DNA from: a virus | Lineage: Duplodnaviria > Heunggongvirae > Uroviricota > Caudoviricetes | Reading direction: 5' to 3' (one strand) | DNA: 64,000 nucleotides | Virus record (IMG/VR): IMGVR_UViG_3300028854_000008 | Location: 63,374 to 127,373 of that record | Shown: positions 6,088 to 21,846 of the stretch, piece after piece | Layout of the letters: each line of letters starts with the position of its first letter | How positions within the stretch are numbered: position 1 is the stretch's first letter | The notes under the pieces: model-generated | The model's input: only the letters and a program-made list of their open reading frames with translations | Told to the model about the DNA's origin: nothing | Databases searched by the model: none | Translations under genes and position numbers: made by a program

Positions 6088-6176
6088 GTGCTAGAGGCAA
6101 CTATCGGTTTGTTGCGCCAGATTGTGACCCTGGACTCGAAAGAGTATTACGGATTCGACTTCCGCCTAGCACCCCA
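6088..6176 (+). tRNA. tRNA with class-II body (long variable arm) and anticodon GTG (His), discriminator C, CCA encoded
   Basis: Acceptor GTGCTAG/CTAGCAC, D GCAA/TTGC 11-nt loop, anticodon stem CCAG(A)/(C)CTGG loop TTGTGAC, variable arm ACTC-GAAA-GAGT, T CGGA-TTCGACT-TCCG. Confidence 0.55.
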
Positions 6177-6200
6177 TGTTTAGTAGTAAAGTTTAAATGT

Positions 6201-6288
6201 CGGAATGGCGGCAGGCCTGGTTTGCCTCCACGTTTGGGGCGTGGCGTTCGTAAGAACATCGTAGGTTCAAATCCTATCATTCCGACCA
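6201..6288 (+). tRNA. tRNA with class-II body (long variable arm) and anticodon TGG (Pro), CCA encoded
   Basis: Acceptor CGGAATG/CATTCCG, D GGC/GCC, anticodon stem CCACG/CGTGG perfect loop TTTGGGG, variable arm GTTC-GTAA-GAAC, T GTAGG-TTCAAAT-CCTAT. Confidence 0.55.
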
Positions 6289-6329
6289 TAATATTAATAG
6301 TAATGTTTCATGTTTATATAAAGTTTAAT

Positions 6330-6408
6330 CAGAGTGAGGGCCATTTGGAAGGCCACTTGGTCCGGAGCCAAGAAAATCGTGAGAGTTCAAATCTCTCCAC
6401 TCTGACCA
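6330..6408 (+). tRNA. tRNA-Pro (CGG), C at position 33, 8-nt variable loop, CCA encoded
   Basis: Acceptor CAGAGTG/CACTCTG, D GGCC/GGCC, anticodon stem CTTGG/CCAAG loop TCCGGAG, T GAGAG-TTCAAAT-CTCTC. Confidence 0.7.
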
Positions 6409-6439
6409 TTTTAAACTAAATACATCTGGAGGGTTTACT

Positions 6440-6736
6440 ATGTATTCAGATGAATTTAGAAAATATATGAAAGTAGTTGATGATAATTCTGAAGAAGATT
6501 TAGATCAATGGGGTAGACTTGTTAAGAAAATGTTTGGAGAAGATTCTTATGTTGTTAAAGAAAAAACATCATATGGTCCCAAATATAGAGTTTATGCTAG
6601 ATTTTATCCACAAGCAATATTGGGGCTCAAAGGAGAAGATGCTGAAATTGAAAAAGCTGTAGAGAAAGCAAAAGATACTATAGAACATTACAAAACTCCC
6701 AAAAAAGCAGTCATAAAATATGAAGGTGGGTGGTAA
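6440..6736 (+). CDS. hypothetical protein
   Basis: ORF track; GGAGGG SD. Confidence 0.5.
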   Translation: MYSDEFRKYMKVVDDNSEEDLDQWGRLVKKMFGEDSYVVKEKTSYGPKYRVYARFYPQAILGLKGEDAEIEKAVEKAKDTIEHYKTPKKAVIKYEGGW

Positions 6737-7105
6737 ATGAAACTTTGGTTAGATGATATTCGTGATCCAAAGAGATATGGTTATCATGATATGTATTGGG
6801 CTAAAAATTATAATGAAGCGATTGCTGCTTTGAAACTTGGTAAAGTAACATTTGCTTCATTAGATCATGATATTGGTGCTTGTGAAGATTGTGTAAAATC
6901 GTTGTCACACATTGGAGACATGCGCTCGCCTGAGACAACATTTTTTAATCATTGCTCACATGAAAAATCTGGTTACGATGTAATTTGTTTTATGGAAGAT
7001 AATGATATATGGCCAACAGACGGTGTAAAAGTTCATAGTATGAATCCAGTTGGCAAAGAAAGAATGAATCAAGTGATTAGAAAGCAGTATGGAAGAACTT
7101 GGTAG
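6737..7105 (+). CDS. hypothetical protein (N-terminus MKLWLDDIRDP...SLDHD, possibly receiver-like fold)
   Basis: ORF track; 4-nt ATGA-type coupling to upstream ORF. Confidence 0.5.
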   Translation: MKLWLDDIRDPKRYGYHDMYWAKNYNEAIAALKLGKVTFASLDHDIGACEDCVKSLSHIGDMRSPETTFFNHCSHEKSGYDVICFMEDNDIWPTDGVKVHSMNPVGKERMNQVIRKQYGRTW

Positions 7106-7117
7106 GTATTAATTTGT

Positions 7118-7191
7118 GGAGTATTAGATTAACAGTGGATCGTATCCCTTTCAAGGATAAGGAGTGGGGGCAGCACCCACATACTCTACCA
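7118..7191 (+). tRNA. tRNA-Glu (TTC) with non-canonical T-loop GGCAGCA, CCA encoded
   Basis: Acceptor GGAGTAT/ATACTCT, anticodon stem TATCC/GGATA loop CTTTCAA, T GTGGG/CCCAC. Confidence 0.6.
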
Positions 7192-7331
7192 TAAGTTCAA
7201 ATGCATTTTGCGCTACCTTGCACCTGAATATGAATATACTTGTTGTACTTGTAATAAATTATTTAGAACTGATAGAAAGAGAAAAACACAAAATGTTTGT
7301 TGTAGCAGAGAATGTAGTTGGCATCAAAAAT

Positions 7332-7407
7332 GATCTATTAGAATAGTTGGTTAGTTCGCAACTCCCTCAAAGTTGAAACGAGAGTTCAAATCTCTCATAG
7401 ATTACCA
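7332..7407 (+). tRNA. tRNA-Glu (CTC), C33, CCA encoded
   Basis: Acceptor GATCTAT/ATAGATT, D GAAT/GTTC, anticodon stem CAACT/AGTTG loop CCCTCAA, T GAGAG-TTCAAAT-CTCTC. Confidence 0.7.
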
Positions 7408-7425
7408 TAAAGTTTGATGATTTAT

Positions 7426-7501
7426 AGGCCTATAGCTCAAGCGGCAGAGCACACGATTGATAATCGTGAGGTTGAATCTTCGATTGATTCTAGGCCTACC
7501 A
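7426..7501 (+). tRNA. tRNA-Ile (GAT), CCA encoded
   Basis: All four stems perfect: AGGCCTA/TAGGCCT, GCTC/GAGC, CACGA/TCGTG loop TTGATAA, GAATC-TTCGATT-GATTC. Confidence 0.9.
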
Positions 7502-7512
7502 AAAATTAATAT

Positions 7513-7590
7513 GCGCTCGTATGCCGCTTCGCTTCGAACGAAGAGAAAGCTAATGGATACATACAGGTTCGAGTCCTGCCGAGCGTTCCA
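7513..7590 (+). ncRNA. tRNA-like element lacking a D-arm (acceptor + anticodon-like hairpin CTTCG-CTTCGAA-CGAAG (TCG) + T-arm + CCA)
   Basis: Acceptor GCGCTCG/CGAGCGT, T CAGG-TTCGAGT-CCTG, CCA encoded; only 5 nt between acceptor and anticodon hairpin. Confidence 0.35.
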
Positions 7591-7731
7591 CATTGGAGTT
7601 AGAATGAATTGTACTTTATGTAATAAAGAAACAAAAATCCAAAATTTTGTTCGCAATCTTGCTCAGCAAAATTTTCAAATAAAAATAGAGAACGATCTTT
7701 TGATTCACGAGTAAAAATAAGTTCGTCTTTA

Positions 7732-8232
7732 AGAAATTGTAAATCTCTTTCAACAAGTATTGAATGTTCAATTTGTGCTAGGAAATTTTATAAATTTGAG
7801 TCTAAAGGTAGAAAATATTGTAGTCTTAAATGTTGTGGAATTGCAAAGAAAAATAAATTCACTGCTGATTTTTCTCTGAATGGAAAGGGAAATCATAAAA
7901 GAGTGTTAATACATGAGCGTGGTTATAAATGCGAACGATGTAAAAATAGTGAATGGATGGGAATAGAAATTAATTTGCAATTAGAACATAAGGATGGAAA
8001 TCATTTTAATAATGAAAAAACAAATTTAGAGCTTTTATGCCTCAATTGCCATAGTCAAACATTAACATTTAATCGTAAGAAAACAGCAAAACTTATTTCT
8101 GACGATGAATTTTTAAAAGTATTAAATTCATCTAAAAATATTCGTCAATGTTTATTAAAATTAGGTTTGCAGCAAGGTAGCACAAATTATGATAGAGCCA
8201 AAAGATTATTAAGAAGAAATATGCAGCCGTAG
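7732..8232 (+). CDS. HNH homing endonuclease, no canonical start codon upstream of GTG 7903 (non-canonical start or disrupted gene)
   Basis: In-frame zinc-finger N-terminus CSICARKFYKFESKGRKYCSLKCC plus HNH core LEHKDGNHFNN..NLELLCLNCH; frame opens after TAA 7729-7731; stop overlaps tRNA 8223. Confidence 0.55.
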   Translation, partial: RNCKSLSTSIECSICARKFYKFESKGRKYCSLKCCGIAKKNKFTADFSLNGKGNHKRVLIHERGYKCERCKNSEWMGIEINLQLEHKDGNHFNNEKTNLELLCLNCHSQTLTFNRKKTAKLISDDEFLKVLNSSKNIRQCLLKLGLQQGSTNYDRAKRLLRRNMQP

Positions 8233-8309
8233 CCTAGTGGATTCAGGCACCAGTCTACGAAACTGGAGAGGAAACTCTAACGCAAGTTCGAATCTTGTCG
8301 GCTGCACCA
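8223..8309 (+). tRNA. tRNA-Arg (ACG) with long variable arm (class-II-like body), CCA encoded
   Basis: All stems perfect: GCAGCCG/CGGCTGC, GCCT/AGGC, CCAGT/ACTGG loop CTACGAA, variable arm AGAG-GAAA-CTCT, T GCAAG-TTCGAAT-CTTGT. Confidence 0.7.
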
Positions 8310-8320
8310 AAAGTTTAAAT

Positions 8321-8396
8321 GCAATTATAGATTAGCGGCTAAATCGGATGGTCTACACCCATTTCATCACAGGTTCGAGTCCTGTTAATTGCACCA
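8321..8396 (+). tRNA. tRNA-Val (TAC), C33, CCA encoded
   Basis: Acceptor GCAATTA/TAATTGC, D GATT/AATC, anticodon stem GATGG/CCATT loop TCTACAC, T ACAGG-TTCGAGT-CCTGT. Confidence 0.75.
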
Positions 8397-8586
8397 AGTT
8401 TTCTCTGCATCGTGGAATGGACACGAGGCGTTTACCAGGTGATTTGACGCTAAGTTTACTGATTTGCATTGCGATCACGGCAATGCAATGGTTGGTCTAA
8501 GAGACTAGTAAAATAGTGGTAATATATCAGTTTAGCGATTGATAAGTAACCCACCAGAGAAAAATAACTTGTAGCATTATTCTATA

Positions 8587-9603
8587 TTGTGCTATAATAA
8601 AGAAGTAAATCAAAGGAGAAATATATTCGTGAGTACTTTAAGTACTAAATATTTACCACTCCCATCAAAAGTTAATCCGGATAAATTAGAAACTCTTTTA
8701 AAGAAGCAAGGAAACAAAAATAATATTATTCAAGATGTATATTCTGAGGTTATAGATTTCATCACTCAAAATAATCTCATATCAAATGAATTATTAATAC
8801 CAGAAAAACCTCCAATCCGCATGTTAGAAATAGGCAAAGTTCTATTGTGTGTCATTGAAGATTATTCCAAATTTAATACTGAAATGCTCCCCAAAAAATA
8901 TGTGGAGAATTTTCATTTTTCTTGGGTTAAAAAAGGGTATCGAGTAATTTGGATTAAAAGATTTGAGTGGGAAGATTTGAGAAAGCGTAATGTATTACAA
9001 TCTTTAATTCTTCATGCTTGCGGTAAAACAAAAAATAGATTTTTCGCAAGGAAAACATACGCTGAAATTATTCCTAGTAAAGATTTAAGAGAATTTTTTA
9101 ACAATTCTTCTTTTTATGGTTATCGCAATGCTTCGTTTGCTGTTTGTTTAAAAGATAAAAAGACTAATGAAATTTTAATGGCTATGAATTTTGGACACCC
9201 ATATTATGGAAAAAACAAGTATGGAGAAGGCGCTGTAGAATGTATCAGAGCAGCTTCTAAACCTCACACAGTTATTGTTGGCGGAATGTCAAAATTAATG
9301 AAATTTATGATTGAGCAGTTCGGAAATACTTTTAAATCTTGCGTGTATTATATTGACAGTTCCCATTATGGGAGTGGATCGATGGGGGCGGCTGGATTTA
9401 CTTATTCTCATTTTGCTGGAGGAGCGTCACATAATGTTTGGAAAAAAACAGGAAGTATGTTTATGAGAACACCAGCATTACATCAGGAAATAATGTTTAT
9501 GATTAAACAAAACGAAATAGTTGCAGTTCCAGATGTGGGAAATGAAACTTTTATATTTAATACCAGCAACGAAATTGGTAATGCAAGTTCAACAGATACA
9601 TAA
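8587..9603 (+). CDS. hypothetical protein (338 aa; likely real start at GTG 8629 after AAAGGAGAAA SD)
   Basis: ORF track; strong SD before in-frame GTG 8629. Confidence 0.6.
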   Translation: MCYNKEVNQRRNIFVSTLSTKYLPLPSKVNPDKLETLLKKQGNKNNIIQDVYSEVIDFITQNNLISNELLIPEKPPIRMLEIGKVLLCVIEDYSKFNTEMLPKKYVENFHFSWVKKGYRVIWIKRFEWEDLRKRNVLQSLILHACGKTKNRFFARKTYAEIIPSKDLREFFNNSSFYGYRNASFAVCLKDKKTNEILMAMNFGHPYYGKNKYGEGAVECIRAASKPHTVIVGGMSKLMKFMIEQFGNTFKSCVYYIDSSHYGSGSMGAAGFTYSHFAGGASHNVWKKTGSMFMRTPALHQEIMFMIKQNEIVAVPDVGNETFIFNTSNEIGNASSTDT

Positions 9604-9672
9604 AGATTGTGTAAGTATGTATTTTCTTGGATCAAAACCAAAGGATACAAATTTCATGATAAATAATAATGT

Positions 9673-9747
9673 GCCGAAATGGTGAAAGTGGCATCACGAG
9701 ACTCTCGTAAAGTTTAATTACGTCCTCAATTGACGTTTTCGGCTCCA
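9673..9747 (+). tRNA. tRNA-Thr (CGT) with non-canonical T-loop CTCAATT, CCA encoded
   Basis: Acceptor GCCGAAA/TTTCGGC, D GTGA/TCAC, anticodon stem AGACT/AGTTT loop CTCGTAA, T ACGTC/GACGT. Confidence 0.65.
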
Positions 9748-9760
9748 AAGTTTAATATGT

Positions 9761-9837
9761 GGCCCTATAGTCTAGTTGGATCAGGCAACTGCCTTCTAAG
9801 CAGTATCACGGGAGTTCGAGTCTCTCTAGGGTCACCA
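9761..9837 (+). tRNA. tRNA-Arg (TCT), CCA encoded
   Basis: Acceptor GGCCCTA/TAGGGTC, anticodon stem ACTGC/GCAGT loop CTTCTAA, T GGGAG-TTCGAGT-CTCTC. Confidence 0.8.
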
Positions 9838-9849
9838 AAAGTTTACTAT

Positions 9850-9924
9850 GCCTCTTAATAATAGGTAGCGATTTACTTCACTTGTAATGAAGATAGCTCG
9901 GCGCAAGTCCGGGAAGAGGCTCCA
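9850..9924 (+). tRNA. tRNA-Thr (TGT), non-canonical T-loop CGCAAGT, CCA encoded
   Basis: Acceptor GCCTCTT/AAGAGGC, anticodon stem CTTCA/TGAAG loop CTTGTAA, T CTCGG/CCGGG. Confidence 0.7.
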
Positions 9925-9933
9925 AAATATTAT

Positions 9934-10010
9934 GCTCTCGTGGTCTAAATGGAGAAGGCGCTTCTTTCCTAAAGAAGAAGATGGGGATTCAAATTCCTCC
10001 GAGAGTACCA
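9934..10010 (+). tRNA. tRNA-Arg (CCT), CCA encoded
   Basis: Acceptor GCTCTCG/CGAGAGT, anticodon stem CTTCT/AGAAG loop TTCCTAA, T GGGGA-TTCAAAT-TCCTC. Confidence 0.8.
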
Positions 10011-10023
10011 AATTTAAATATAC

Positions 10024-10098
10024 GCCCTTTAATAATAGGTAGCGATTTGCAACTCCAGTAAAGTTGATAGCTCGGCGCAAATCCGGGAAAGGGCTCCA
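10024..10098 (+). tRNA. tRNA-Thr (AGT), paralog of 9850 tRNA, C33, CCA encoded
   Basis: Acceptor GCCCTTT/AAAGGGC, anticodon stem CAACT/AGTTG loop CCAGTAA, T CTCGG-CGCAAAT-CCGGG. Confidence 0.7.
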
Positions 10099-10105
10099 TT
10101 CTATT

Positions 10106-10315
10106 ATGACGAACAAAGAATTTGTTCAATCACTATATCCGCAAGCATATTGTATTCATGCAACGTGGCTTCCTTTTAAATCGTATGTAATATGGTGTGT
10201 TAATTTTAATAATTATCTCCATAATATGACAAATTATTGCTCAACTGAAAATGATGCATGGAAACAAGCGGCAATAAAAATTCATGAAAAATTAATTCAA
10301 AAATTAGAAAAATAA
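10106..10315 (+). CDS. hypothetical protein
   Basis: In-frame ATG inside ORF-track ORF 10064..10315, downstream of tRNA. Confidence 0.45.
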   Translation: MTNKEFVQSLYPQAYCIHATWLPFKSYVIWCVNFNNYLHNMTNYCSTENDAWKQAAIKIHEKLIQKLEK

Positions 10316-10438
10316 TCCTTGACATAAATGAATAAATGATATATCATTAATAGTGAAAGAGATAAAATATAATTTTATCATTGGTAATTCTTCCATTTGT
10401 GATACTTATATGTTTCTGAATTATTATTTGGCAAAAAC

Positions 10439-10663
10439 ATGACTCATAGTGAATTTAAAATCAGTGAAAAATTTACTTGCGGCGATCATATTTGGATGAC
10501 TACTGATGTTGGCTCTCGCGTTATTGTGGCAATTCAAATTGATGAAGTTAATAAATTAAATTATGAGGATGCAAAATCAGAAGGATGGTTTGTTGGTCCT
10601 CCTTATGCTGTAAATGAAACTGTATTTGATGAGTACGATATAGTTTTTTGCAAGAAATATTAA
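10439..10663 (+). CDS. hypothetical protein
   Basis: ORF track. Confidence 0.45.
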   Translation: MTHSEFKISEKFTCGDHIWMTTDVGSRVIVAIQIDEVNKLNYEDAKSEGWFVGPPYAVNETVFDEYDIVFCKKY

Positions 10664-10675
10664 TACGGAGAAATT

Positions 10676-10927
10676 TTGATTATAATTTGTATATTAGTAT
10701 TGGGATTAATAGCGATAATTCTTTATTATTCAATAAAATTGCGAAAAGCAAATAATTGTATAAAGAAAAAACAATTTATTATAGATAACCAATCAAAAGA
10801 ATTGAGCAGATTTCATTTGTCATGGTCTGTCAATCCGCATGTATATAAAAAGAATAAAACTTCAGGGATTGGATTTTGTGATGTTTGCTTTAGTGATGAC
10901 GAAAATGATGGAAACCACATTAAATAA
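10676..10927 (+). CDS. hypothetical membrane protein (N-terminal TM helix)
   Basis: Hydrophobic N-terminus IIICILVLGLIAIILYYSI. Confidence 0.45.
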   Translation: MIIICILVLGLIAIILYYSIKLRKANNCIKKKQFIIDNQSKELSRFHLSWSVNPHVYKKNKTSGIGFCDVCFSDDENDGNHIK

Positions 10928-11022
10928 TAAAGAGAAATGCACTTGCAATTATATATCAAAAACGAGAATGAGTGCAAATTCTTAATAACGAAAAATATTA
11001 ACTATAAATTTAGAGGATAATT

Positions 11023-11970: not shown

Positions 11971-11985
11971 ATTTTAAGGATAAAT

Positions 11986-12303: not shown

Positions 12304-12312
12304 AGGATTTCT

Positions 12313-13300: not shown

Positions 13301-13317
13301 CAATGACTTAAAAATCA

Positions 13318-13352: not shown

Positions 13353-13952
13353 ATGGAACAATATCCGACAATACTTGGTAGTTCAAAAGCGCCATTAGGA
13401 AAGCCGTGTATTGCTTTCTACAAATATGATGGCAGCAATTTACGTTGGGAATGGAACCCAAAGAAAGGTTGGCATAAATTTGGGACTCGTCACCAATTAT
13501 TTGACTCTTCTAACCCATTGTTTGGCCAAGCAATTCCAATCTTTTTAAACACGATGGGAGATGAAATAGTTGAACGAGTAAAGAAGATCAATAAGAAAAT
13601 ACATAGAATCACTGCGTTCACAGAATTTTTTGGACCATCCAGTTTTGCTGGAAAGCATGAAATTGACGAGCTGAAAGAATTGAGATTGTTTGATGTTTAT
13701 TTGTTTCATCAGGGAATGATGCTGCCAAAAGAATTCGTTAAAACTTTTGGAGATTTGCCTTATACAGCACAAATTGTTTATCAAGGAAATTTAAATAAAC
13801 AATTTATTGATGATGTTCGTACTGGAAAATATCCTGTGATTGAAGGAGTTGTAGCAAAAGGAAATGATTTTAGTGTAAAAATTAAAACAAATTCATATTT
13901 TCAAAAACTAAATGAAGTGTATGGAACTGCATATCGTCAGTATTGGGAATAA
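13353..13952 (+). CDS. small ATP-dependent nucleic-acid ligase-like nucleotidyltransferase (KxDG family)
   Basis: Motif I KYDGS, motif III-like RITAFTEFFG, motif IV EGVVAKG, motif V VKIKTN. Confidence 0.55.
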   Translation: MEQYPTILGSSKAPLGKPCIAFYKYDGSNLRWEWNPKKGWHKFGTRHQLFDSSNPLFGQAIPIFLNTMGDEIVERVKKINKKIHRITAFTEFFGPSSFAGKHEIDELKELRLFDVYLFHQGMMLPKEFVKTFGDLPYTAQIVYQGNLNKQFIDDVRTGKYPVIEGVVAKGNDFSVKIKTNSYFQKLNEVYGTAYRQYWE

Positions 13953-14034
13953 ATAATAGTAATGTGTTCGCAAATAATATGAAAATTTTTGAAAGGAGAA
14001 ATCATATGCAATAGTAAATCAATAAAGGAGAAAA

Positions 14035-14364
14035 TTGCAAATGAGTAAATCTTATCGCAAACCATATTCGTCGCCAACTGGAAGTCTCAGTGCAAAAAAA
14101 GATAAACAAATGGCCAACCGATCAATTAGAAGAACACAAAATAATTATTTAAAATTAAATTGGGATGAAGAGGATTTTTTAATTCCAAATAAGTATGAAT
14201 GCGCAAACAATGAAATTTATGGTTGGAGTAGAGATGGAAATAATCGATATCAAGAACTAAATACATCTTGGAATCGATACTGTTTATTTCTCATTGGAAA
14301 TTATTATTACAAAAACTATAATATTTTTCCTCCAATATGGTACGCTAGATTAGTAAGAAAATAG
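14035..14364 (+). CDS. hypothetical basic protein
   Basis: ORF track. Confidence 0.5.
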   Translation: MQMSKSYRKPYSSPTGSLSAKKDKQMANRSIRRTQNNYLKLNWDEEDFLIPNKYECANNEIYGWSRDGNNRYQELNTSWNRYCLFLIGNYYYKNYNIFPPIWYARLVRK

Positions 14365-14716: not shown

Positions 14717-14728
14717 CAAGGAATAAAT

Positions 14729-14805
14729 TGAGGCATAGTTTAATTGGCCAAAACATTCGGCTCTGACCCGAAAGATTCTAGGTTCGACGCCTAGTGCCTC
14801 AGCCA
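14729..14805 (+). tRNA. tRNA-Gln (CTG), CCA encoded
   Basis: Acceptor TGAGGCA/TGCCTCA, D GTTT/AAAC, anticodon stem TTCGG/CCGAA loop CTCTGAC, T CTAGG-TTCGACG-CCTAG. Confidence 0.8.
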
Positions 14806-14975
14806 AAAATTAGAAAGGAAATATTAAATAGGTTTGGGTTGCATTCTTTCTTGACATTTAATTTAAAAGTTGATATAATCATTATATGAAAAGCTATCAA
14901 TGGGCAAATACTCCAAAAATAGCATGAAAACTCATGGTTAGAGATTGAAATTGAATTATTAAGAAAGTTAGAGAA

Positions 14976-16226: not shown

Positions 16227-16238
16227 CCAGGAAAAAAC

Positions 16239-16529: not shown

Positions 16530-16774
16530 CTTTAGAAGAAAATATACAATTTGTACGAGCAATGTATCCAGATGCAATTGCTATTAAAGGAATCAGTAGG
16601 TATGCAATTATAACTATTTCTCAAAGAACACTAGAAGAAATTGAAAATTATAAACATACTGAATTAACCTCACAAACCTATGAAATTAGCAGATGGGTTA
16701 AAACCATTGATGAAGCTTGGAATGACTCTGCGTATTGCTTAAATAAGAGATTAGAAGATAAACTTGCATATTAA
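16526..16774 (+). CDS. small protein, paralog triplet member
   Basis: VRAMYPDAIAIKG...AW...KRLEDKLAY; ATGA overlap with previous. Confidence 0.5.
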   Translation: MTLEENIQFVRAMYPDAIAIKGISRYAIITISQRTLEEIENYKHTELTSQTYEISRWVKTIDEAWNDSAYCLNKRLEDKLAY

Positions 16775-16794
16775 ATACAGAAAAGAGAAAAACT

Positions 16795-17412
16795 ATGATA
16801 GATTTATCAAAAAAACCAGTATTGGTTCTTAACACTGCATTTGAACCTTTGAATGTATGCAGCGCAAAACGCGCCCTTAAACTTATTGTTAAAGGCAGAG
16901 CGAAAATAGAAGAATCACATTTACAAAAAGTTCATACTACAAAAATGTGGGATGAGCTAACTGGAGAATTTGTTTTAATTGATCTATTTTTGCCAAGTGT
17001 CATTAGATTACTATCCTACAGATTTATTCCTGTACGCACACAACTTCTAACTAGGAAAAATATATTTAGCAGGGATAAAAATACTTGTCAATATTGTAAT
17101 CATGTATTTTCTCCAAAAAATTTAACTCTCGATCACATTTTACCAAGATCAAAAGGCGGAAAATCAACATGGGAAAATCTTGTTGCGTGTTGCCATGAAT
17201 GTAACACGTACAAAGGTGACACATTGCTATGTGATCTTAGAGATATGAAATTAATTAAAAACCCCAAATCAATTAATTCTCATACTTCTAAGCATTTGCT
17301 TAGAAATCAAGGAGCTGATGACCCTTTTTGGCGCAAATATTTATTCTTCGATAATGATAGTGAGGAAAATCAATGGACAGAGGAAATAGGAGATACAAAA
17401 CTCAAAAAATAG
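16795..17412 (+). CDS. HNH endonuclease
   Basis: CQYCNHVF...LDHILPRSKGGKSTWENLVACCHECNTYKG. Confidence 0.8.
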   Translation: MIDLSKKPVLVLNTAFEPLNVCSAKRALKLIVKGRAKIEESHLQKVHTTKMWDELTGEFVLIDLFLPSVIRLLSYRFIPVRTQLLTRKNIFSRDKNTCQYCNHVFSPKNLTLDHILPRSKGGKSTWENLVACCHECNTYKGDTLLCDLRDMKLIKNPKSINSHTSKHLLRNQGADDPFWRKYLFFDNDSEENQWTEEIGDTKLKK

Positions 17413-17621
17413 CAGAACGTAGAGCCAAACAACTGAAAGATTATCATAATAAATTTGGAGTATTTAATATATTACCAGAATCAGAACTAGAAACTGGTTA
17501 TTTTAAAAAAAATAATGGATTTACCATTAAAAAAGAATCTTCCAGATTGTGGAATAAAATACTTAAAAATAAAAAAGCTAAAAGAAAATACGAAAAGAGA
17601 AACCCACTTATTGAAAAATAG
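17373..17621 (+). CDS. hypothetical basic protein
   Basis: ORF track. Confidence 0.45.
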   Translation: MDRGNRRYKTQKIAERRAKQLKDYHNKFGVFNILPESELETGYFKKNNGFTIKKESSRLWNKILKNKKAKRKYEKRNPLIEK

Positions 17622-17638
17622 GTGGGTTTCTCTTTTCG
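17596..17638 (+). terminator. intrinsic terminator (12-bp stem AGAGAAACCCAC / GTGGGTTTCTCT + T tract)
   Basis: Perfect hairpin followed by TTTTCG. Confidence 0.6.
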
Positions 17639-17651
17639 TATAAATAGTAAT

Positions 17652-18134
17652 ATGAATAATACATTCAATAATTCTATTGGTGGCTCATCAATTACTATAA
17701 GTGGCACGACTGCTACTTCTTTCGTCAATGCTGTTAATTCAGCTAACATATATGGCATAACTGCAAATGTGACTGCAAATAAGATCAATATAATTTATGC
17801 AAATCCTGGGCCATTTTATATAAATGAAACTGATACTAAAAATACTCCTCTGGCTAATGCTGGAATAAAAACAGGAGAATATGGAATTTCTTCAAATTTG
17901 ACAGTAATTTCAGGAAATGTAGCAAGTCCATCTTTTAATGCCAATAGTTATTTTAGCTTAGGTGTAAATTGGAATTCCATTATAAATGCCATGCCCAAAT
18001 CTGCTAGAAGAGCATTTAAATGTAGCAACATTGCTACTCCAGAACGAAAAGCAGTTGGCACAATAGGATTTCGATCATTAAATAATTTTGCTAACACCCA
18101 CAGTCCAACAGCAGGCCATCCTTGGAGTACTTAA
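17652..18134 (+). CDS. hypothetical Asn/Ser-rich protein
   Basis: ATG in frame within ORF-track ORF 17622..18134. Confidence 0.5.
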   Translation: MNNTFNNSIGGSSITISGTTATSFVNAVNSANIYGITANVTANKINIIYANPGPFYINETDTKNTPLANAGIKTGEYGISSNLTVISGNVASPSFNANSYFSLGVNWNSIINAMPKSARRAFKCSNIATPERKAVGTIGFRSLNNFANTHSPTAGHPWST

Positions 18135-18211
18135 CTTCTTTAGTATCAAACATATAAATCATACTTGACAAATCTATTTAAGTTTGCTATACTATATTCA
18201 TAGTGTGAATT

Positions 18212-18871
18212 ATGAATAATATTCAGCAAACTCGATATAAATACCCAAGAACTTTCCATTTCCCAGAAAGCCCTGGTGCCATGAATGACGATAGGATTCT
18301 TGATCCAATAGAGTCTTATGCAAAATGGGATCATGAAGTCGTGATTACTGAAAAGAGAGATGGCGAAAATTTTTCAGGATATAATGACGGCTAGCATGTG
18401 AGAAGTTTGGACTATGAAGCGCATCCAAGCAGAAATCGAATCGCTGCACTTCACGCTCGTTTCTCTTATCTTATTCCTGATGGTTGGAGAATTTGCGCAG
18501 AAAATCTTACAGTGAAACACAGCATCAAGTATAAAGATTTGCAAGAAATTTGTGAAGTATTTGGAATTTGGAATGGAGAAACTTGTTTAAGTTGGGACGA
18601 TACTGTGATATTTTCTGCATTATTGGAATTACCAACAGTTCCTATTTTATGGAGAGGAATTTGGAATCCTGAATATTCTAGCGTGTTTGTAGATCAAATT
18701 TCAAGAATGATAAATCCAGAAACTCAAGAAGGATTTGTTGTTCGCCCAACAGCATCATTTCAAATGAAAGATTTTAATCATTTGGTTGGAAAATGGGTTA
18801 GAAAAGGTCACGTTACTTCTGGAGAACATTGGATGCGTTCTCAAATTGAATATAATGAAATCAGTGGTTGA
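18212..18871 (+). CDS. ATP-dependent RNA/DNA ligase-like protein interrupted by in-frame TAG (18392-18394); readthrough candidate or pseudogene
   Basis: Motif I ITEKRDGEN upstream of TAG; downstream same-frame ORF carries EGFVVR (motif IV) and VGKWVRKGH (motif V); ORFs 18212..18394 and 18398..18871 are in the same frame. Confidence 0.5.
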
Positions 18872-18970
18872 CAAAATTTAAGAAAAAGGATAATATGAAA
18901 TATATAGCTTGTATACTTTTACTATTAATTTTGGGATGCACTACTAGCTGAGGCTGGTGAAGGAGCAGAG

Positions 18971-19330
18971 ATGATTCAGCAATACGGGTTTGTTGCAGAC
19001 TTCGATAACGAGACAGAGAATCTAGTTCCTCAAGAATCTGGCGAATGGGTTACTCACGCGGATCACGTTGCGAAGTTGCAGCGGTGGAAGGATGCGCCGA
19101 GCGATCTGGTGGAACAGATGTGCCACGCATACGCTGGGGCTACAGGAGATCACCGCGCAAAGATGACCGCTGCACTCTCTGTAGAACAGTCGCATCCTCC
19201 TTCTGGATGGGTATCAGTGGAGGCAGTGCAAGAGGCTATTGTGAAGTGCTACAAAACATATTGCGGTGAAAGCGAGATCGTATTTGCTGAATATATGTGT
19301 AAGTATCTCTCCTCTGCCAAACCGAAGTAG
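18971..19330 (+). CDS. hypothetical protein on GC-rich island
   Basis: ORF track; local GC far above genome background. Confidence 0.45.
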   Translation: MIQQYGFVADFDNETENLVPQESGEWVTHADHVAKLQRWKDAPSDLVEQMCHAYAGATGDHRAKMTAALSVEQSHPPSGWVSVEAVQEAIVKCYKTYCGESEIVFAEYMCKYLSSAKPK

Positions 19331-19757
19331 CGTGTGACAGTGGAAGCAGAGACAGAGGAGTGCCTTCCATTTGATATTGTTTTGAAATGGAGAAAGATTA
19401 ACCGCAAGTAACCGCTCCCAACGATAAATATTTTAATTTTCATGATGTTTTTATATGAAAAGTTTTCAAAAAATAACAAAATAATGAGTTGACAAGGATA
19501 AATAACTATGATACTATAAATACAGTAAAGAAACACACAAATAATATGATAAACATCAATCAGTAGTGTAAATTTAAAATAAGAAAAATAACTAGTATAA
19601 TAAATATCAATCAGTAGTGTAAAATTAAGGATAAAGAAATGAAAAACAAAATGCGTAATCTCTACAATAGTTTCTGTGTATGGTATTTGAGTTCACCGCT
19701 CTATTGGCTAGTTATGCGTATCGGGATGGGGATGTAAAAGTTCATTAGAACTTTAAA

Positions 19758-19786
19758 AAAGCCCCAATAATATTGGGGCTTTTTAA
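19758..19786 (+). terminator. intrinsic terminator AGCCCCAATA/TATTGGGGCT + TTTTT
   Basis: Perfect 10-bp stem and T run, upstream of tRNA cluster. Confidence 0.6.
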
Positions 19787-19792
19787 TTTTGT

Positions 19793-19870
19793 AGCTGAAT
19801 AGCGCAATTGGCAGGAGGCAACAGACTCAAAATCTGTACAGTGTGGGTTCGAGTCCCACTTCAGCTACCA
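19793..19870 (+). tRNA. tRNA-Leu (CAA) with class-I body (short variable loop), CCA encoded
   Basis: Acceptor AGCTGAA/TTCAGCT, anticodon stem ACAGA/TCTGT loop CTCAAAA, T GTGGG-TTCGAGT-CCCAC, 5-nt variable loop. Confidence 0.65.
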
Positions 19871-19890
19871 AAAGTTTAAATGTAAAATGT

Positions 19891-19968
19891 GCCGTTGTAG
19901 ACCAATTGGAAGGAGTCACTTGACTTAGAATCAAGACAGTATGGGTTCGAATCCCTTGGACGGCACCA
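19891..19968 (+). tRNA. tRNA-Leu (TAG) with class-I body, CCA encoded
   Basis: Acceptor GCCGTTG/GGACGGC, anticodon stem CTTGA/TCAAG loop CTTAGAA, T-loop TTCGAAT, 5-nt variable loop. Confidence 0.6.
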
Positions 19969-19982
19969 AAAGTTTTAAATGT

Positions 19983-20076
19983 ATGAGTGAAGGGCAATCC
20001 GGTTTGGCTCAGCAGTCTCCAAAACTGCCGTCTCTGAGAAGAGCAAATGTAGGTTCAAATCCTACCACTCATGCCA
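19983..20076 (+). tRNA. tRNA with class-II body (20-nt variable arm) and anticodon CCA (Trp), CCA encoded
   Basis: Acceptor ATGAGTG/CACTCAT, D GGGC/GCTC, anticodon stem GCAGT/ACTGC perfect loop CTCCAAA, T GTAGG-TTCAAAT-CCTAC. Confidence 0.6.
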
Positions 20077-20089
20077 AAGTTTTAAATGT

Positions 20090-20180
20090 GCGTTAGCTAG
20101 TGAGACGATGGACACTGACTGGCCGTAACCCAGTTCTCTCTTTGAGAGCGATGGAGGTTTGAATCCTTCCTAACGCACCA
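20090..20180 (+). tRNA. tRNA-Tyr (GTA), canonical class II, C33, CCA encoded
   Basis: Acceptor GCGTTAG/CTAACGC, D AGTG/CACT, anticodon stem ACTGG/CCAGT loop CCGTAAC, long variable arm, T GGAGG-TTTGAAT-CCTTC. Confidence 0.75.
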
Positions 20181-20209
20181 AAAGTTTTAAAATACGAAGG
20201 GGAAATATA

Positions 20210-20494
20210 ATGACACTGGAAAATGAAAAGCTTATTGATTTAGCAACTAATGGATTGGAACTTTCAAATAAAATAAACGATCTTAATGACAGAATTAATA
20301 TTCTTCAAAGAGATTTAAACGAGTTAAATCAAAGAAAAATGAATGCAACTTTTCAAAAGCAAATTATATTAACAGAATTAGTTCGCAGAAAGTGTCATGA
20401 TATTGGCGGAGCGTTAACATTAATTAACAAAGGCGAAATTGACGGAAATAGCACTGAAATTTTTGACAGAGAGAGAAACAAAGTTAAGAAGTAA
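20210..20494 (+). CDS. hypothetical coiled-coil protein
   Basis: ORF track; GAAGGGGAAA SD. Confidence 0.5.
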   Translation: MTLENEKLIDLATNGLELSNKINDLNDRINILQRDLNELNQRKMNATFQKQIILTELVRRKCHDIGGALTLINKGEIDGNSTEIFDRERNKVKK

Positions 20495-20499
20495 AATAA

Positions 20500-20596
20500 G
20501 GGCAGTTGGGGGAGTGGCTTAACCCAAAAGTTTGCTAAACTTTCGGACCAGAATTAAATACTGGTTCCATTCGTTCAAATCGAATACTGCCCGCCA
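20500..20596 (+). tRNA. tRNA-Ser (GCT), class II, CCA encoded
   Basis: Acceptor GGGCAGT/ACTGCCC, D GGG/CCC, anticodon stem AAAGT/ACTTT loop TTGCTAA, 25-nt variable arm, T ATTCG-TTCAAAT-CGAAT. Confidence 0.8.
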
Positions 20597-20625
20597 AGTT
20601 TAAATTTATAAAAGGAGAAAAAGAC

Positions 20626-20796
20626 ATGCTCGATTATCGACTGTTACATTGTGAATGTGCCTGCCACTTTTTTCCAACAGTTATCAAACATACTGAACCT
20701 TGTTGTGATGCAGTAAAATTATTTAAAAAAGACATTGAGATAAAGACTAAGAAAGAAAAGGTAAATACAAAGAAGAATACACAGATGGATGCGTGA
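20626..20796 (+). CDS. hypothetical small Cys-rich protein (56 aa)
   Basis: ATG after AAAGGAGAAAAAGAC; below ORF-track cutoff. Confidence 0.35.
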   Translation: MLDYRLLHCECACHFFPTVIKHTEPCCDAVKLFKKDIEIKTKKEKVNTKKNTQMDA

Positions 20797-20855
20797 GTGG
20801 TTTATACGATCAGTTTATAAAAACTAACAACCCATTCCATCTGATACAAATTAAA

Positions 20856-20942
20856 TGGAGGTATTGGGCATTGGCAAGCCCTTCTGTCTCGAAAACAGAC
20901 GTACCGAAAGGACTTGGGGATTCGACTTCCTCTGCCTCCGCC
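20856..20942 (+). tRNA. tRNA-Ser (CGA), class II, CCA encoded
   Basis: Acceptor GGAGGTA/TGCCTCC, D GGG/CCC, anticodon stem TCTGT/ACAGA loop CTCGAAA, T GGGGA-TTCGACT-TCCTC. Confidence 0.75.
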
Positions 20943-20955
20943 ACTTGGAGAAATA

Positions 20956-21138
20956 ATGGCTTGGACAAATAGAAAATTTTATAAACGACATTCAAAAACG
21001 AATTTTTTAATGCTTTATTTGGAAAAGATTAAAAATGAAGAAAGAAGATTGCATGACATTCTTTGTGAACAACTTGCTTATTTGGAAGACGAAGAATGTA
21101 TAGAAAATTTTAATGATGATGATTGGATAAGTTGCTAA
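20956..21138 (+). CDS. hypothetical protein
   Basis: In-frame ATG within ORF-track ORF 20914..21138 after tRNA. Confidence 0.45.
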   Translation: MAWTNRKFYKRHSKTNFLMLYLEKIKNEERRLHDILCEQLAYLEDEECIENFNDDDWISC

Positions 21139-21651
21139 ATGAAAACTATTTTTTTATTTCTGTTAATATTATCATGCTCTGTTAGCATAGCTCAATCACC
21201 AGATTTTTCTGTCCCTAAAAAACATATTATTCCAATGATTTTTAATTATCCGGGATATAATATAACCAATGATAATAAACAAAGAAAAATGTTATTCATT
21301 GAACGATCAACATTTTTGCTGGATGAAACCACAACTTATATTGCAATTAATAAAACACCAAAGATAATAACATTAGCAGATGGTTCCAACCATACTTTTC
21401 CATTGCAGGAAGGTAATCCCATAATGTCAATATTTGGTAATAGAAATACTATTGGAATTTTGGGTTCTGGTATTTTTTGGGATAGTGTTTATAATATTAG
21501 CACCAGCGAATTATATAAATATTCTGATCATCATTATAGCAATAAAACTAGAAAAGTTATCCATGCTGGAATAATTATTATTGGATGCTATTACACTGAA
21601 GAACATATTAGGGCTGGAATTACGAATATTAATAATATTAAAAATTATTAA
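21139..21651 (+). CDS. hypothetical secreted protein (signal peptide)
   Basis: N-terminus MKTIFLFLLILSCSVSIAQS. Confidence 0.55.
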   Translation: MKTIFLFLLILSCSVSIAQSPDFSVPKKHIIPMIFNYPGYNITNDNKQRKMLFIERSTFLLDETTTYIAINKTPKIITLADGSNHTFPLQEGNPIMSIFGNRNTIGILGSGIFWDSVYNISTSELYKYSDHHYSNKTRKVIHAGIIIIGCYYTEEHIRAGITNINNIKNY

Positions 21652-21653
21652 AT

Positions 21654-21748
21654 GGAGAGGTGGCAGAGAGTCTTATTGCGATAGTCTAGAAAACTATTGG
21701 GCTTACTAATAATAAGTCCCGTGGGTTAAAATCCCACTCTCTCCTCCA
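21654..21748 (+). tRNA. tRNA-Ser (AGA), class II, T-loop TTAAAAT, CCA encoded
   Basis: Acceptor GGAGAGG/TCTCTCC, anticodon stem ATAGT/ACTAT loop CTAGAAA, T GTGGG/CCCAC. Confidence 0.7.
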
Positions 21749-21754
21749 TTTTAT

Positions 21755-21846
21755 GTGCTGATACGGAAGTGGCTTAACCGGGCGGTCTGCAAAATCGCTA
21801 TAATCATTAATTTGATTCGTGGGTTCGAATCCCACTCAGCACTCCA
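21755..21846 (+). tRNA. tRNA with class-II body (20-nt variable arm AATCA-TTAATTT-TGATT) and anticodon GCA (Cys), CCA encoded
   Basis: Acceptor GTGCTGA/TCAGCAC, D CGG/CCG, anticodon stem GCGGT/ATCGC loop CTGCAAA, T GTGGG-TTCGAAT-CCCAC. Confidence 0.6.

Follow-up and report, generated by a model that had tools for sequence, protein, structure and literature searches.

The stretch of DNA analysed here, called the window throughout, comprises 64 kb (64,000 nucleotides) of a tailed-virus genome from IMG/VR (record IMGVR_UViG_3300028854_000008, positions 63,374 to 127,373). It has a G+C content of 33.5% and nearly all of its transcription is on the plus strand, on which the tRNA genes described below are located. 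The window contains at least 27 tRNA genes, almost all with an encoded CCA end, among them genes for Trp, Cys, Pro, Arg and His tRNAs that bear a long variable arm and genes for Leu tRNAs without one. According to reviews, the long arm is confined to tRNAs for Leu, Ser and bacterial Tyr, and tRNALeu is armed everywhere except in animal mitochondria (PMC9976931, PMC4033280); both statements fail in phages, that is, in the window and its relatives. The tRNA genes were called with ARAGORN at default settings (23 tRNAs in the window) and at a relaxed threshold (-ps90), and with the Rfam tRNA model (gathering score 29), and a variable region of at least 10 nt that forms a stem-loop was taken as class-II architecture. 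Five tRNAs have such a region, with lengths of 15-20 nt and stems of 3-5 bp, and these are the tRNAs with the anticodons GTG, TGG, ACG, CCA and GCA for which a first-pass annotation of the sequence had proposed long arms, the His tRNA being recovered by ARAGORN only below the default threshold.

The five genes are of unequal quality (scores in brackets are those of ARAGORN, followed by Rfam bits where given). tRNA-Cys(GCA) (21755..21846) is 92 nt long and has a 19-nt variable hairpin with a 5-bp stem, U73 and G1:C72 (121.5; 49.5). tRNA-Arg(ACG) (8223..8309, 87 nt) carries the 15-nt hairpin AGAG-GAAA-CUCU and A73 (119.0; 58.4), has an Arg-type D-loop with A20, and its nearest body in the window is that of tRNA-Arg(UCU). 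tRNA-Pro(UGG) (6201..6288, 88 nt) has the 17-nt hairpin UUCG-UAA-GAAC, C1:G72 and A73 (103.0; 31.2); ARAGORN draws it with an 8/4 branch, and a 7/5 fold with G8 is equally possible. tRNA-Trp(CCA) (19983..20076, 94 nt) has a 20-nt variable region with the 4-bp stem CUCU/AGAG, A1:U72, G73 and A8 (107.8); its best Rfam alignment is to the tRNA-Sec model, at 40.7 bits and thus below that model's gathering score of 47. A tRNASec is characterized by a UCA anticodon, a 13-bp acceptor/T branch (8/5) and a 6-bp D-stem, and this identity was rejected for the Trp gene, which has a CCA anticodon, a 7/5 branch and a 4-bp D-stem in addition to the low score. The weakest of the five is the tRNA-His(GUG) candidate (6088..6176), with the 15-nt hairpin CUC-GAAA-GAG, C73 and an encoded CCA: ARAGORN reports it only at -ps90 (98.2), Rfam gives it 24.1 bits, below the gathering score, while placing the insertion in the variable region, and it has T at position -1 (no encoded G-1), two A.C mismatches and A8. 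Its unconstrained minimum free energy fold is a five-arm cloverleaf (z = -3.06). Within the window, which spans part of the phage genome only, each of the five is the sole tRNA with its anticodon. When the tRNA bodies of the window were compared all against all, the maximal identity was 0.72, and a recent duplication followed by an anticodon shift was rejected.

The stems of the His (6133-6147), Arg (8267-8281) and Trp (20029-20048) arms, and also that of the Tyr arm (20136-20152), are all built from CTC(T)/(A)GAG. A sequence-specific arm motif was nevertheless rejected, as the two related phages L003 and L004 lack it; its sharing within the window may reflect local homogenisation or chance.

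The converse situation is found for Leu. tRNA-Leu(CAA) (19793..19870; 116.0; 54.6) and tRNA-Leu(UAG) (19891..19968; 112.9; 46.1) are both 78 nt long, have the 5-nt variable loop ACAGU and A73, and the former contains the Leu-type D-loop AAUUGGCAGGA. Bacterial tRNALeu was defined by A73 and a Leu-type D-loop (A14, the placement of G18G19, A20a), and the sequence features of a leucyl-tRNA synthetase (LeuRS) substrate (A73, D-loop AAUUGG(C/A)AGGA) are present in both genes despite the short loop. Short-armed Leu tRNAs had been proposed in the first-pass annotation for these two genes and for a third with a UAA anticodon (1055..1125; 112.7; 53.1). The third is indeed of class I, but its Leu identity is doubtful because it has C73, the Ala identity pair G3.U70, no encoded CCA and an anticodon-stem mismatch; its 7-nt D-loop is Gly-like, and the sequence features of a LeuRS substrate are absent. 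The three Ser tRNAs and the Tyr tRNA are canonical class-II tRNAs according to ARAGORN, as had been stated.

Many window tRNAs deviate in addition in the anticodon loop or the T-loop. C33 was found by ARAGORN in Asp (2625), Pro(CGG) (6330), Glu(CUC) (7332), Val (8321) and Tyr (20090) and by manual folding also in Thr(AGU) (10024), which includes all five positions listed before. T-loops without TTC occur in Asp (2625), Phe (2842), Glu(UUC) (7118), Thr (9673), Tyr and Ser(AGA) and in the manually folded Thr genes at 9850 and 10024. The background frequencies of these features were taken from a database-order IMG/VR sample, for which the gap of the search pattern was widened so that ordinary tRNATrp genes also match. 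In this sample, variable regions of at least 10 nt are present in 25 of 711 (3.5%) class-I-isotype tRNAs, mainly Asn, Ile(UAU), Met and Lys, about 8% of the tRNATrp genes are long, about 30% of the tRNALeu genes (24/77) are short, and 2.6% of the tRNAs have C33. Compared with the sampled phage tRNAs, the window is about ninefold enriched in long variable regions on class-I isotypes (5/20 versus 25/711, p = 8e-4) and about tenfold enriched in C33 (6/27 versus 23/868, p = 1e-4).

Long arms are not a peculiarity of this genome, as had been implied by the first reading of the sequence, but the window is an extreme case of a trait that is spread across many phages. A pattern consisting of the tRNATrp anticodon loop and a T-arm 22-34 nt later was applied to IMG/VR, and among the first 120 matches listed ARAGORN recognized at least 87 long tRNATrp genes, at least 68 of them distinct. 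Their hairpins are highly diverse; GNRA loops close about one in three. The variable regions of 91 distinct sequences fold at -4.1 kcal/mol, compared with -0.9 for shuffled sequences. In a MAFFT alignment of 23 phage long-arm tRNATrp sequences every helix covaries, the extra helix included, and 98.5% of the cells are paired; the covariation score is 0.89 versus 0.24 for shuffles, none of 500 shuffles scored as high, and all three pairs of the variable helix change on both sides. These results show that the extra helix is under purifying selection for pairing.

The same conclusion holds on a shorter evolutionary scale. By the gene content of related contigs, the window is assigned to an uncultivated T4-like jumbo phage: the protein encoded at 8587-9603, inside the tRNA region, has a graded series of homologues in metagenomes, and the contigs with these homologues carry T4-type gp23, gp15 and terminase genes together with NadA, GMP reductase, ClpX, polynucleotide kinase-phosphatase (PNKP), RNA ligases, CCA-adding enzyme and transfer-messenger RNA (tmRNA). 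The gene order around 8587-9603 is poorly syntenic. In L003 (79% protein identity) the Trp (92 nt) and Cys (94 nt) tRNAs are both armed. L004 (73%) has an armed tRNATrp of 93 nt, an ordinary tRNACys of 76 nt and both long and short Leu genes, L005 (64%) has ordinary Arg(ACG), Trp and Pro(UGG) tRNAs, and L007 (76%) has a 90-nt tRNA-Gly(UCC) with a 6-bp arm. C33 in Tyr is common to the window and L004, and C33 in Val(UAC) to the window and L007. The stems of the Trp arms, CUCU/AGAG in the window, UUCC/GGAA in L003 and GGC/GCC in L004, represent compensatory replacements. The compensatory changes, together with the patchy occurrence among relatives, therefore show that the arm is a maintained structure, although it appears and disappears on different isotypes within short evolutionary distances.

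No close relative of the window was found among GenBank phages, nor in IMG/VR with two local window proteins as queries. A metagenome scan with the protein containing a cyclic-phosphate-processing receiver domain (cREC_REC), encoded inside the tRNA island, yielded only the same phage, including a 3-kb contig in a JGI metagenome that is identical to the window, and one short contig, and therefore no orthologues of the His, Pro and Arg genes. The short contigs with the closest homologues (P0003, P0011, P0012) gave no tRNAs. One further contig with an 8587-9603 homologue (L010, 54 kb, GCA_902386595.1) is labelled 'uncultured archaeon'; it also encodes a Gp53-like baseplate domain, a SegE GIY-YIG endonuclease, DnaJ and ClpB, and is probably a mis-binned phage contig.

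Armed and arm-less tRNAs of this type are also present in cultured phages. Caulobacter phage CcrColossus has a tRNATrp of 86 nt with A1:U72, G73 and the arm GGC-GCAA-GCC, and a tRNALys(CUU) is long both in CcrColossus (90 nt, L180 5768-5857) and in CcrBL9 (87 nt, L181 2996-3082). In Brevundimonas jumbo phages, annotated tRNA-Trp genes match the long-arm query, and their long arm is putative. Short tRNALeu genes (74-78 nt) that are 82-87% identical to those of the window are annotated in cultured Felix-O1-like, Gordonia, Streptomyces and mycobacterial phages. Ala and Asp tRNAs, in contrast to the isotypes mentioned above, were never armed in either of two phage tRNA sets (0/33 and 0/38 in one, 0/26 and 0/22 in the other). 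The loss of U8 is more common in long-arm tRNAs than in others (20% versus 6%, odds ratio 3.6, p = 3e-6). Further long-arm isotypes recur in phage arrays: a tRNA-Ile(UAU) of 91-96 nt was observed in 6 of 41 Ile genes (L199, L220, L229, L244, L255, L285), five of which have the common D-arm GUUUAAUGGUAAAAC, and Asn tRNAs are also frequently long (7/46).

A stricter pattern, applied to 185,579 species genomes (one genome per species), matched only 46 loci. The Trp-type matches lie mainly in dense, phage-like tRNA arrays on contigs of metagenome-assembled genomes from many phyla, showing that the long-arm trait is concentrated in phage-type tRNA arrays. Singleton matches are of another kind; they have tRNASer bodies (G1:C72, G2:C71, G73, 6-bp arm) or tRNALeu bodies (A73) with a CCA anticodon. 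Such singletons (L143, L146, L151, L154, L156, L168, L173, L176, L177) were observed in Acidobacteria, Dehalococcoidia, a Saccharibacteria chromosome and a Pelagibius isolate, and judging from their bodies they could translate UGG as Ser or Leu.

The question of which amino acid the long-arm tRNAs carry was approached via identity elements. A tRNASer was defined by a long arm, G73 (or U73) and the acceptor pairs G1:C72 and G2:C71 (A3:U70), as they are present in co-resident phage tRNASer, and the cognate determinants were those of E. coli (Trp, G73 and A1:U72; Cys, U73; Pro, A73 and G72; Arg, A20 with A73 or G73; His, G-1:C73). The acceptor signature of a seryl-tRNA synthetase (SerRS) substrate is absent in the window: Trp has A1:U72, Pro has C1:G72 and A73, Arg has A73, His has C73, and Cys has G1:C72 but U2:A71. 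The E. coli-type determinants, in contrast, are present, namely G73 and A1:U72 in Trp, U73 in Cys, A73 and G72 in Pro, and A20 and A73 in Arg, and His has C73 without an encoded G-1. The earlier observation that the discriminator bases agree with the anticodons was thus reproduced.

The same trend is seen in other phages. Among phage long-arm tRNATrp the pair 1:72 is A:U in 37 and G.U in 17 of 67 genes, and G73 is present in 60 of 67, whereas the co-resident tRNASer have G1:C72 in 37 of 37 and G2:C71 in 33 of 37 cases. When the acceptor criteria were applied to the long-arm Trp genes of viral contigs and relatives (68 distinct ones), 55 were Trp-like and one was Ser-like. Long-arm His genes of other phages have an encoded G-1 and C73, and the other long-arm isotypes have U73 (Gly), G73 (Asn) or C1:G72 and A73 (Pro). 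Short phage tRNALeu have A73 without exception (17/17) and have kept the Leu-type D-loop, in agreement with the finding that E. coli LeuRS does not need the arm (PMC9976931). After in silico deletion of the arm, the best match of the window Cys body is class-I tRNACys of Bacillus phages (E = 1e-4), the top annotated matches of the Trp body are tRNATrp, albeit weak (E about 0.2), and the Arg body gives ambiguous matches to Leu, Met and Gln. A Ser-like D-arm and 75-82% identity to phage tRNASer are seen in many other phage long-arm Trp genes, some of which probably arose by remoulding of a tRNASer(CGA), in which G35 would have been changed to C and the acceptor end to the Trp type.

Codon reassignment was rejected because Cys, His, Trp, Arg and Pro have their normal codons at conserved positions: in NadA, ClpX, GMP reductase and ThyX, the Fe-S-ligand and zinc-finger Cys, the catalytic Cys, the RHR motif and conserved Trp, His, Arg and Pro residues are specified by ordinary codons. 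Acceptor ends that follow the anticodon and conserved residues that are normally encoded together suggest that cognate charging of the long-arm tRNAs is likely and that mischarging with Ser is unlikely, the Cys tRNA with its U73, its 5-bp arm and a single unpaired 3' nucleotide being the case in which mischarging would be least improbable. The tRNALys(CUU) of CcrColossus and CcrBL9 has a Ser-like D-arm, an acceptor stem that starts with G1-G2-G3, and U73 instead of the usual A73 of tRNALys, and is a candidate for non-cognate charging with Ser.

The window combines the remodelled arms and the variants of the anticodon loop and T-loop with a set of genes for RNA repair and maturation. The gene for the cREC_REC protein mentioned above (6737..7105, plus strand; Pfam PF20274, E = 3e-21) lies inside the tRNA island, and an RNA-ligase fragment (18398-18871) is found downstream of an HNH endonuclease gene (16795-17412). 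Further downstream, all on the plus strand, are genes for the RNA-repair enzyme PNKP (40212..41177; Pfam HAD_PNKP 5e-25, AAA_33), an RNA ligase of the Rnl2-like / PHA02142 type (41755..42855; Pfam RNA_ligase 2e-13), a T4 Rnl1-like RNA ligase (43828..44925; Pfam RNA_lig_T4_1 2.5e-14) and a CCA-adding enzyme, i.e., a tRNA nucleotidyltransferase (53288..54661; Pfam PolyA_pol 8e-33, PolyA_pol_RNAbd, tRNA_NucTran2_2). The PNKP gene directly follows an HNH endonuclease gene. An RNase T-like exonuclease is encoded at 60774-61358.

A permuted, two-piece tmRNA is located at 57591-57972 (Rfam RF04321, 73 bits; the tag peptide according to ARAGORN is ATSGINGSAKIFTYSVNLRNTELVNA), and the relative L004 also has one (13715-14073) with the different tag AEVDALPIAA. 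Permuted tmRNAs are typical of alpha-proteobacteria and cyanobacteria, and the type of tmRNA may give a hint at the host. Near the tmRNA, a QueD-like 6-pyruvoyl-tetrahydropterin synthase (61939-62490) and an amidoligase-family protein (59347-60777) are encoded, which may belong to a 7-deazaguanine pathway for DNA or tRNA modification. Paralogous proteins with DUF4116 repeats are scattered in the window (37642-38343, 48103-48768, 62858-63340), and the open reading frame 22993-23250 has, by eye, a similar repeat (MAAVQQYG...IQYIKNPS).

The remaining tRNA genes are as follows. tRNA-Asp(GUC) (2625..2702; 105.5; 52.7) has C33 and the T-loop UGCAACU, tRNA-Phe(GAA) (2842..2917; 100.6; 51.9) the T-loop AUCGUUA, and tRNA-Pro(CGG) (6330..6408; 104.5; 45) C33, an 8-nt variable loop and A8. 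C33 is also present in tRNA-Glu(CUC) (7332..7407; 110.5; 58.5) and tRNA-Val(UAC) (8321..8396; 114.8; 58.9). The set further includes tRNA-Asn(GUU) (3437..3513; 113.6; 48.2), tRNA-Gln(UUG) (4738..4812; 108.6; 63.6), tRNA-Ile(GAU) (7426..7501; 115.0; 63), tRNA-Gln(CUG) (14729..14805; 120.6; 61.7) and the class-I genes tRNA-Arg(UCU) (9761..9837; 114.5; 55.5) and tRNA-Arg(CCU) (9934..10010; 111.4; 55.5). The class-II genes are tRNA-Tyr(GUA) (20090..20180; 104.3), with C33 and the T-loop UUUGAAU, tRNA-Ser(GCU) (20500..20596; 122.8) and tRNA-Ser(CGA) (20857..20943; 104.8), both with G73, and tRNA-Ser(AGA) (21654..21748; 118.1; 45.4), with U73 and the T-loop UUAAAAU. tRNA-Glu(UUC) (7118..7191) has the T-loop GGCAGCA, a D-loop without GG and the 3' end ACCA; ARAGORN does not call it, Rfam gives it 44.6 bits, and its minimum free energy fold is a cloverleaf.

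Three Thr genes have U73: tRNA-Thr(CGU) (9673..9747; 104.0; T-loop CUCAAUU) and two genes called by neither ARAGORN nor Rfam and obtained by manual folding, tRNA-Thr(UGU) (9850..9924; T-loop CGCAAGU) and tRNA-Thr(AGU) (10024..10098; C33, T-loop CGCAAAU), both of which have an encoded CCA. The latter two are paralogues with compensatory changes at the acceptor pairs 4:69 and 5:68, and their 5-bp anticodon stems differ in sequence and are both fully paired. The unusual T-loops reported earlier for 7118, 9673, 9850 and 10024 thus stand; the fifth, at 467, was not confirmed as part of a tRNA. The tRNA-like sequence 467-537 has a CAU anticodon, a perfect 7-bp acceptor stem, ACCA, the T-loop AUUAUUC and a degenerate 12-nt D region, is supported by no tool, and is either a reduced tRNA or a pseudogene.

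The explanation that we prefer, with a confidence slightly short of even, is that these are genuine phage tRNAs that are cognately charged and serve translation, and that their remodelled variable regions are kept by selection, likely because they make the tRNAs differ from host tRNAs before tRNA-reading enzymes. According to this proposal, a short hairpin of 3-5 bp, often with a GNRA-type loop, would have been added to the normally class-I tRNAs for Trp, Cys, Pro, Arg and His, while the long arm would have been removed from tRNALeu, where bacterial LeuRS does not need it. The variable region lies on the outer corner of the L-shaped tRNA, so that gain or loss of an arm would spare decoding, and it would be tolerated because EF-Tu and the ribosome already accept the arms of class-II Leu, Ser and Tyr tRNAs. 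Once present, the hairpin is held by selection, as the compensatory changes show. Together with C33 and the altered T-loops, the remodelled arm would render phage tRNAs unlike the host isoacceptors for enzymes that read tRNA shape, including defence nucleases and nucleotidyltransferases, some of which act on variable arms or class-II tRNAs. The phage might thereby retain a usable tRNA pool when host tRNAs are attacked, which would complement its nearby genes for PNKP, RNA ligases and the CCA-adding enzyme.

Of the three purposes that the first-pass annotation had put forward, i.e., evasion of tRNA-targeting defences, altered identity with mischarging, and decoys, evasion appears to be the one that fits best with the gene context, the distribution in phage arrays and published precedents. 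PtuAB of Retron-Eco7 and Septu cleaves the variable arm of tRNATyr, and the tRNATyr of T5 resists via a distinctive variable loop (PMC13096335). Changes in the anticodon loop allow phage tRNAs to evade anticodon nucleases (PMC10264068), and E. coli LeuRS needs no long arm (PMC9976931). Class-II tRNAs seem to be the preferred targets of the toxins AbiEii and MenT3 (bioRxiv 10.64898/2026.01.19.700257), and this would favour an arm-less tRNALeu. Bacterial Schlafen was considered as a further class-II-specific nuclease and was rejected, as its paper reports cleavage in the anticodon arm and no class-II preference.

Several observations weigh against this explanation. The arms are patchily distributed in relatives (L004 has an ordinary Cys tRNA, L005 has ordinary Arg, Trp and Pro tRNAs, and only L007 has a long Gly tRNA), which fits an arms race and weak constraint equally well. 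The 3.6-fold higher frequency of a base other than U8 in long-arm tRNAs hints at structural compensation and not at evasion. The His gene, sub-threshold and without G-1, may be decaying, and the arm of the window Cys tRNA is Ser-like in its geometry (5 bp, one unpaired 3' nucleotide, U73), so that dual charging with Ser and Cys would be possible. Furthermore, we know of no defence enzyme that is blocked by an added arm on a Trp, Cys, Pro, Arg or His tRNA.

The first two of these observations belong to an alternative that we regard as a tangible possibility while leaning against it, namely neutral or compensatory drift. A hairpin might have been inserted into the indel-tolerant variable loop of fast-evolving, AT-rich phage tRNAs, and the Leu arm lost, without any adaptive benefit, or the hairpin might stabilise a core that is weakened by the loss of U8, by C33 or by a degenerate elbow; the compensatory changes would then reflect only the avoidance of misfolding once an insert exists. 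The presence of variable regions of at least 10 nt in about 3.5% of class-I-isotype phage tRNAs of many isotypes, in a sample that was not chosen for arm length, is in line with drift, as are the unconserved sequences of the variable stems and the presence of A8 in Trp and His and G8 in Pro(UGG) of the window. However, drift would not readily explain that long-arm tRNATrp is strikingly over-represented among isotypes and has a kept geometry (a stem of roughly 4 bp with a GNRA loop, and some three unpaired 3' nucleotides), that Ala and Asp are never armed, and that cellular genomes rarely have the trait although their mutational opportunity is equal. A second proposal, mischarging or recoding, holds that the arm recruits SerRS, or LeuRS or TyrRS (tyrosyl-tRNA synthetase), so that Ser, Leu or Tyr would be inserted at Trp, Cys, Pro, Arg and His codons, a deliberate mistranslation of the sort that has been put forward for nev-tRNAs and allo-tRNAs. 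It is the long arm, and not the anticodon, that SerRS recognizes (PMC7609411, PMC5389517), many of the phage Trp tRNAs with a long arm have the Ser-like D-arms and the 75-82% identity to tRNASer described above, the window Cys shares U73 with the window Ser(AGA) and has a Ser-like arm geometry, and cellular genomes do contain tRNAs that combine a clear Ser or Leu body with a CCA anticodon. Nevertheless, the G1:C72, G2:C71 and A3:U70 of co-resident tRNASer are missing from the acceptor stems of the phage type, which have the Trp-type A1:U72 and G73 instead, and the discriminators track the anticodon (His C73 with G-1, Gly U73, Asn G73, Pro A73 with C1:G72). The phage arms also differ from those of the Ser-bodied CCA-anticodon tRNAs in stem length (4.1 versus 6.0 bp) and in the number of unpaired 3' nucleotides (2.6 versus 1.45), and Fe-S-ligand and catalytic Cys as well as conserved His and Trp are encoded by these very codons. 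These data, and the arm-deleted Cys and Trp bodies that match their own isotypes, make mischarging improbable.

It is nearly as improbable that the genes specify tRNA-like RNAs without a role in translation, for example decoys or sponges for tRNA-targeting nucleases, regulatory RNAs, or decaying pseudogenes that are never charged. The sub-threshold His gene with its two stem mismatches and missing G-1 and the aberrant genes at 467 and 1055 would be compatible with this proposal, and Mukai et al. report irregular tRNAs that are charged yet unused in translation (PMC5389517). On the other hand, four of the five long-arm genes score like ordinary tRNAs (ARAGORN 103-121), the CCA is encoded, anticodon loops are intact and cognate identity elements are retained, each gene is the sole tRNA for its anticodon in that part of the phage genome covered by the window, and the Trp and Cys genes are conserved in relatives; for decoys in particular there was no specific support. 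That the arms are a prediction artefact, i.e., an intron, a wrongly assigned anticodon arm or a fold arising by chance, is hardly credible. The scores under the general Rfam tRNA model are only 31 bits for Pro(UGG) and 24 bits for His, and the tRNA-Sec model gives a slightly better alignment of Trp. The anticodon and the insertion site are nevertheless the same in ARAGORN and Infernal, and the extra helix covaries. The Sec match stays below the gathering score, with the CCA anticodon, 7/5 fold and 4-bp D-stem noted above. An intron was rejected, the insert of 13-20 nt lying in the variable region, outside the anticodon loop, unlike a bacterial group I intron, and covarying as a helix. The fold with a different anticodon position or an intron that had been named as a refutation of the long arms was thus absent, Rfam and ARAGORN both placing the extra nucleotides in the variable region and recovering the anticodons first assigned.

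Selection for cognately charged tRNAs that differ from those of the host thus remains our preferred explanation, and it could be extended, as a tentative proposal that we think possible without expecting it to hold, to phages in general. Phages would have repeatedly built a separate class of tRNAs, with long-arm Trp above all, but also long-arm Cys, His, Lys, Asn, Met, Ile(UAU), Arg, Pro and Gly and arm-less Leu, in which the arm would serve as a mark of self versus non-self, cognate charging would be kept, and shape-reading enzymes of immunity would be blocked or redirected. Such a mark could also allow phage nucleases to destroy host tRNAs while sparing their own. If this were true, the variable arm would be a previously unrecognised arena of the arms race between phages and hosts over tRNAs. 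If the tRNAs are cognately charged, the synthetases for Trp, Cys, Pro, Arg and His must tolerate an extra arm, which would be useful for tRNA engineering and the design of orthogonal pairs, and the arm would be a testable candidate for shielding phage translation from tRNA-targeting defences. For genome annotation it should be noted that genes of this kind risk being classed as mismatches or pseudogenes by isotype models and that ARAGORN or Rfam miss several tRNAs of the window. Genes for long-arm and arm-less tRNAs of this kind already sit in GenBank phage annotations, where we found no comment on them, and a description of class-II-shaped tRNATrp or arm-less tRNALeu in phages was not found by full-text searches of the literature, the coverage of which excludes most subscription journals.

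The phage tRNAs resemble several known systems in part. With canonical class-II Leu, Ser and Tyr tRNAs they share a stem-loop of more than 10 nt that separates the anticodon arm from the T arm, a 3-bp D-stem in several cases and the acceptance of such arms by EF-Tu and the ribosome; they differ in that the arms are on Trp, Cys, Pro, Arg and His tRNAs with acceptor ends of their own isotype and are shorter (3-5 bp) than the Ser arms of the window, and in that the window Leu tRNAs are armless. The class-I tRNALeu and tRNASer of animal mitochondria and the arm-less minimal E. coli tRNALeu (PMC9976931) are similar to the short Leu tRNAs insofar as Leu is still recognisable by A73 and by features of the D-loop and elbow, whereas the window genes are phage-encoded, would be used in a bacterial cytoplasm and belong to a family that extends across Felix-O1-like, Gordonia and Streptomyces phages. 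Resistance to defence tRNases is known for phage tRNAs such as the T5 tRNATyr, which withstands Retron-Eco7 and Septu PtuAB (PMC13096335, PMC11555353, PMC10264068). These tRNAs differ from host tRNAs at the site read by the enzyme and so restore translation; in the window, C33 and anticodon-loop variants come in addition, and tRNA-repair genes are present. However, the changes in the known cases are small and affect the anticodon loop or an existing variable loop of tRNATyr, while the gain of a whole arm and the loss of the Leu arm are not known to be tied to any defence system.

The allo-tRNAs and the (8/4) tRNASer and tRNAHis of bacteria and phages (PMC5389517) also occur in phage tRNA clusters and combine a long variable arm with non-Ser anticodons, and the 8/4 drawing of Pro(UGG) is similar to them. 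Allo-tRNAs are defined by an 8/4 or 9/3 acceptor/T branch, a tRNASec-like D-arm whose long stem ends in a tetraloop, and the identity of a tRNASer, with G73 or U73. Those of the window, in contrast, have 7/5 branches (Pro being ambiguous, and the only one drawn 8/4), ordinary D-arms of 3-4 bp with 9-11-nt loops, and discriminators that are cognate and not of the Ser type. The selC* tRNACys (PMC5389517, PMC7609411) has, like the window Cys tRNA, a GCA anticodon, U73 and a long arm, and is predicted to be a substrate of cysteinyl-tRNA synthetase because U73 and GCA are the main identity elements. It is found in anaerobic bacteria, whereas the window Cys tRNA is phage-encoded, has a 7/5 branch and, after deletion of the arm, a body like that of class-I phage tRNACys. 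The nev-tRNAs of nematodes are charged according to their body rather than their anticodon. They also combine class-II architecture with class-I anticodons (Gly, Ile), but their arms are typical of tRNASer and tRNALeu (PMC4033280), while the phage tRNAs keep identity elements that match the anticodon. Judged by their predicted structures, the phage tRNAs are distinct from nev-tRNAs, from allo-tRNAs and the (8/4) Ser and His tRNAs, and from selC* tRNACys in combining a 7/5 fold, ordinary D-arms and short arms with an identity that matches the anticodon.

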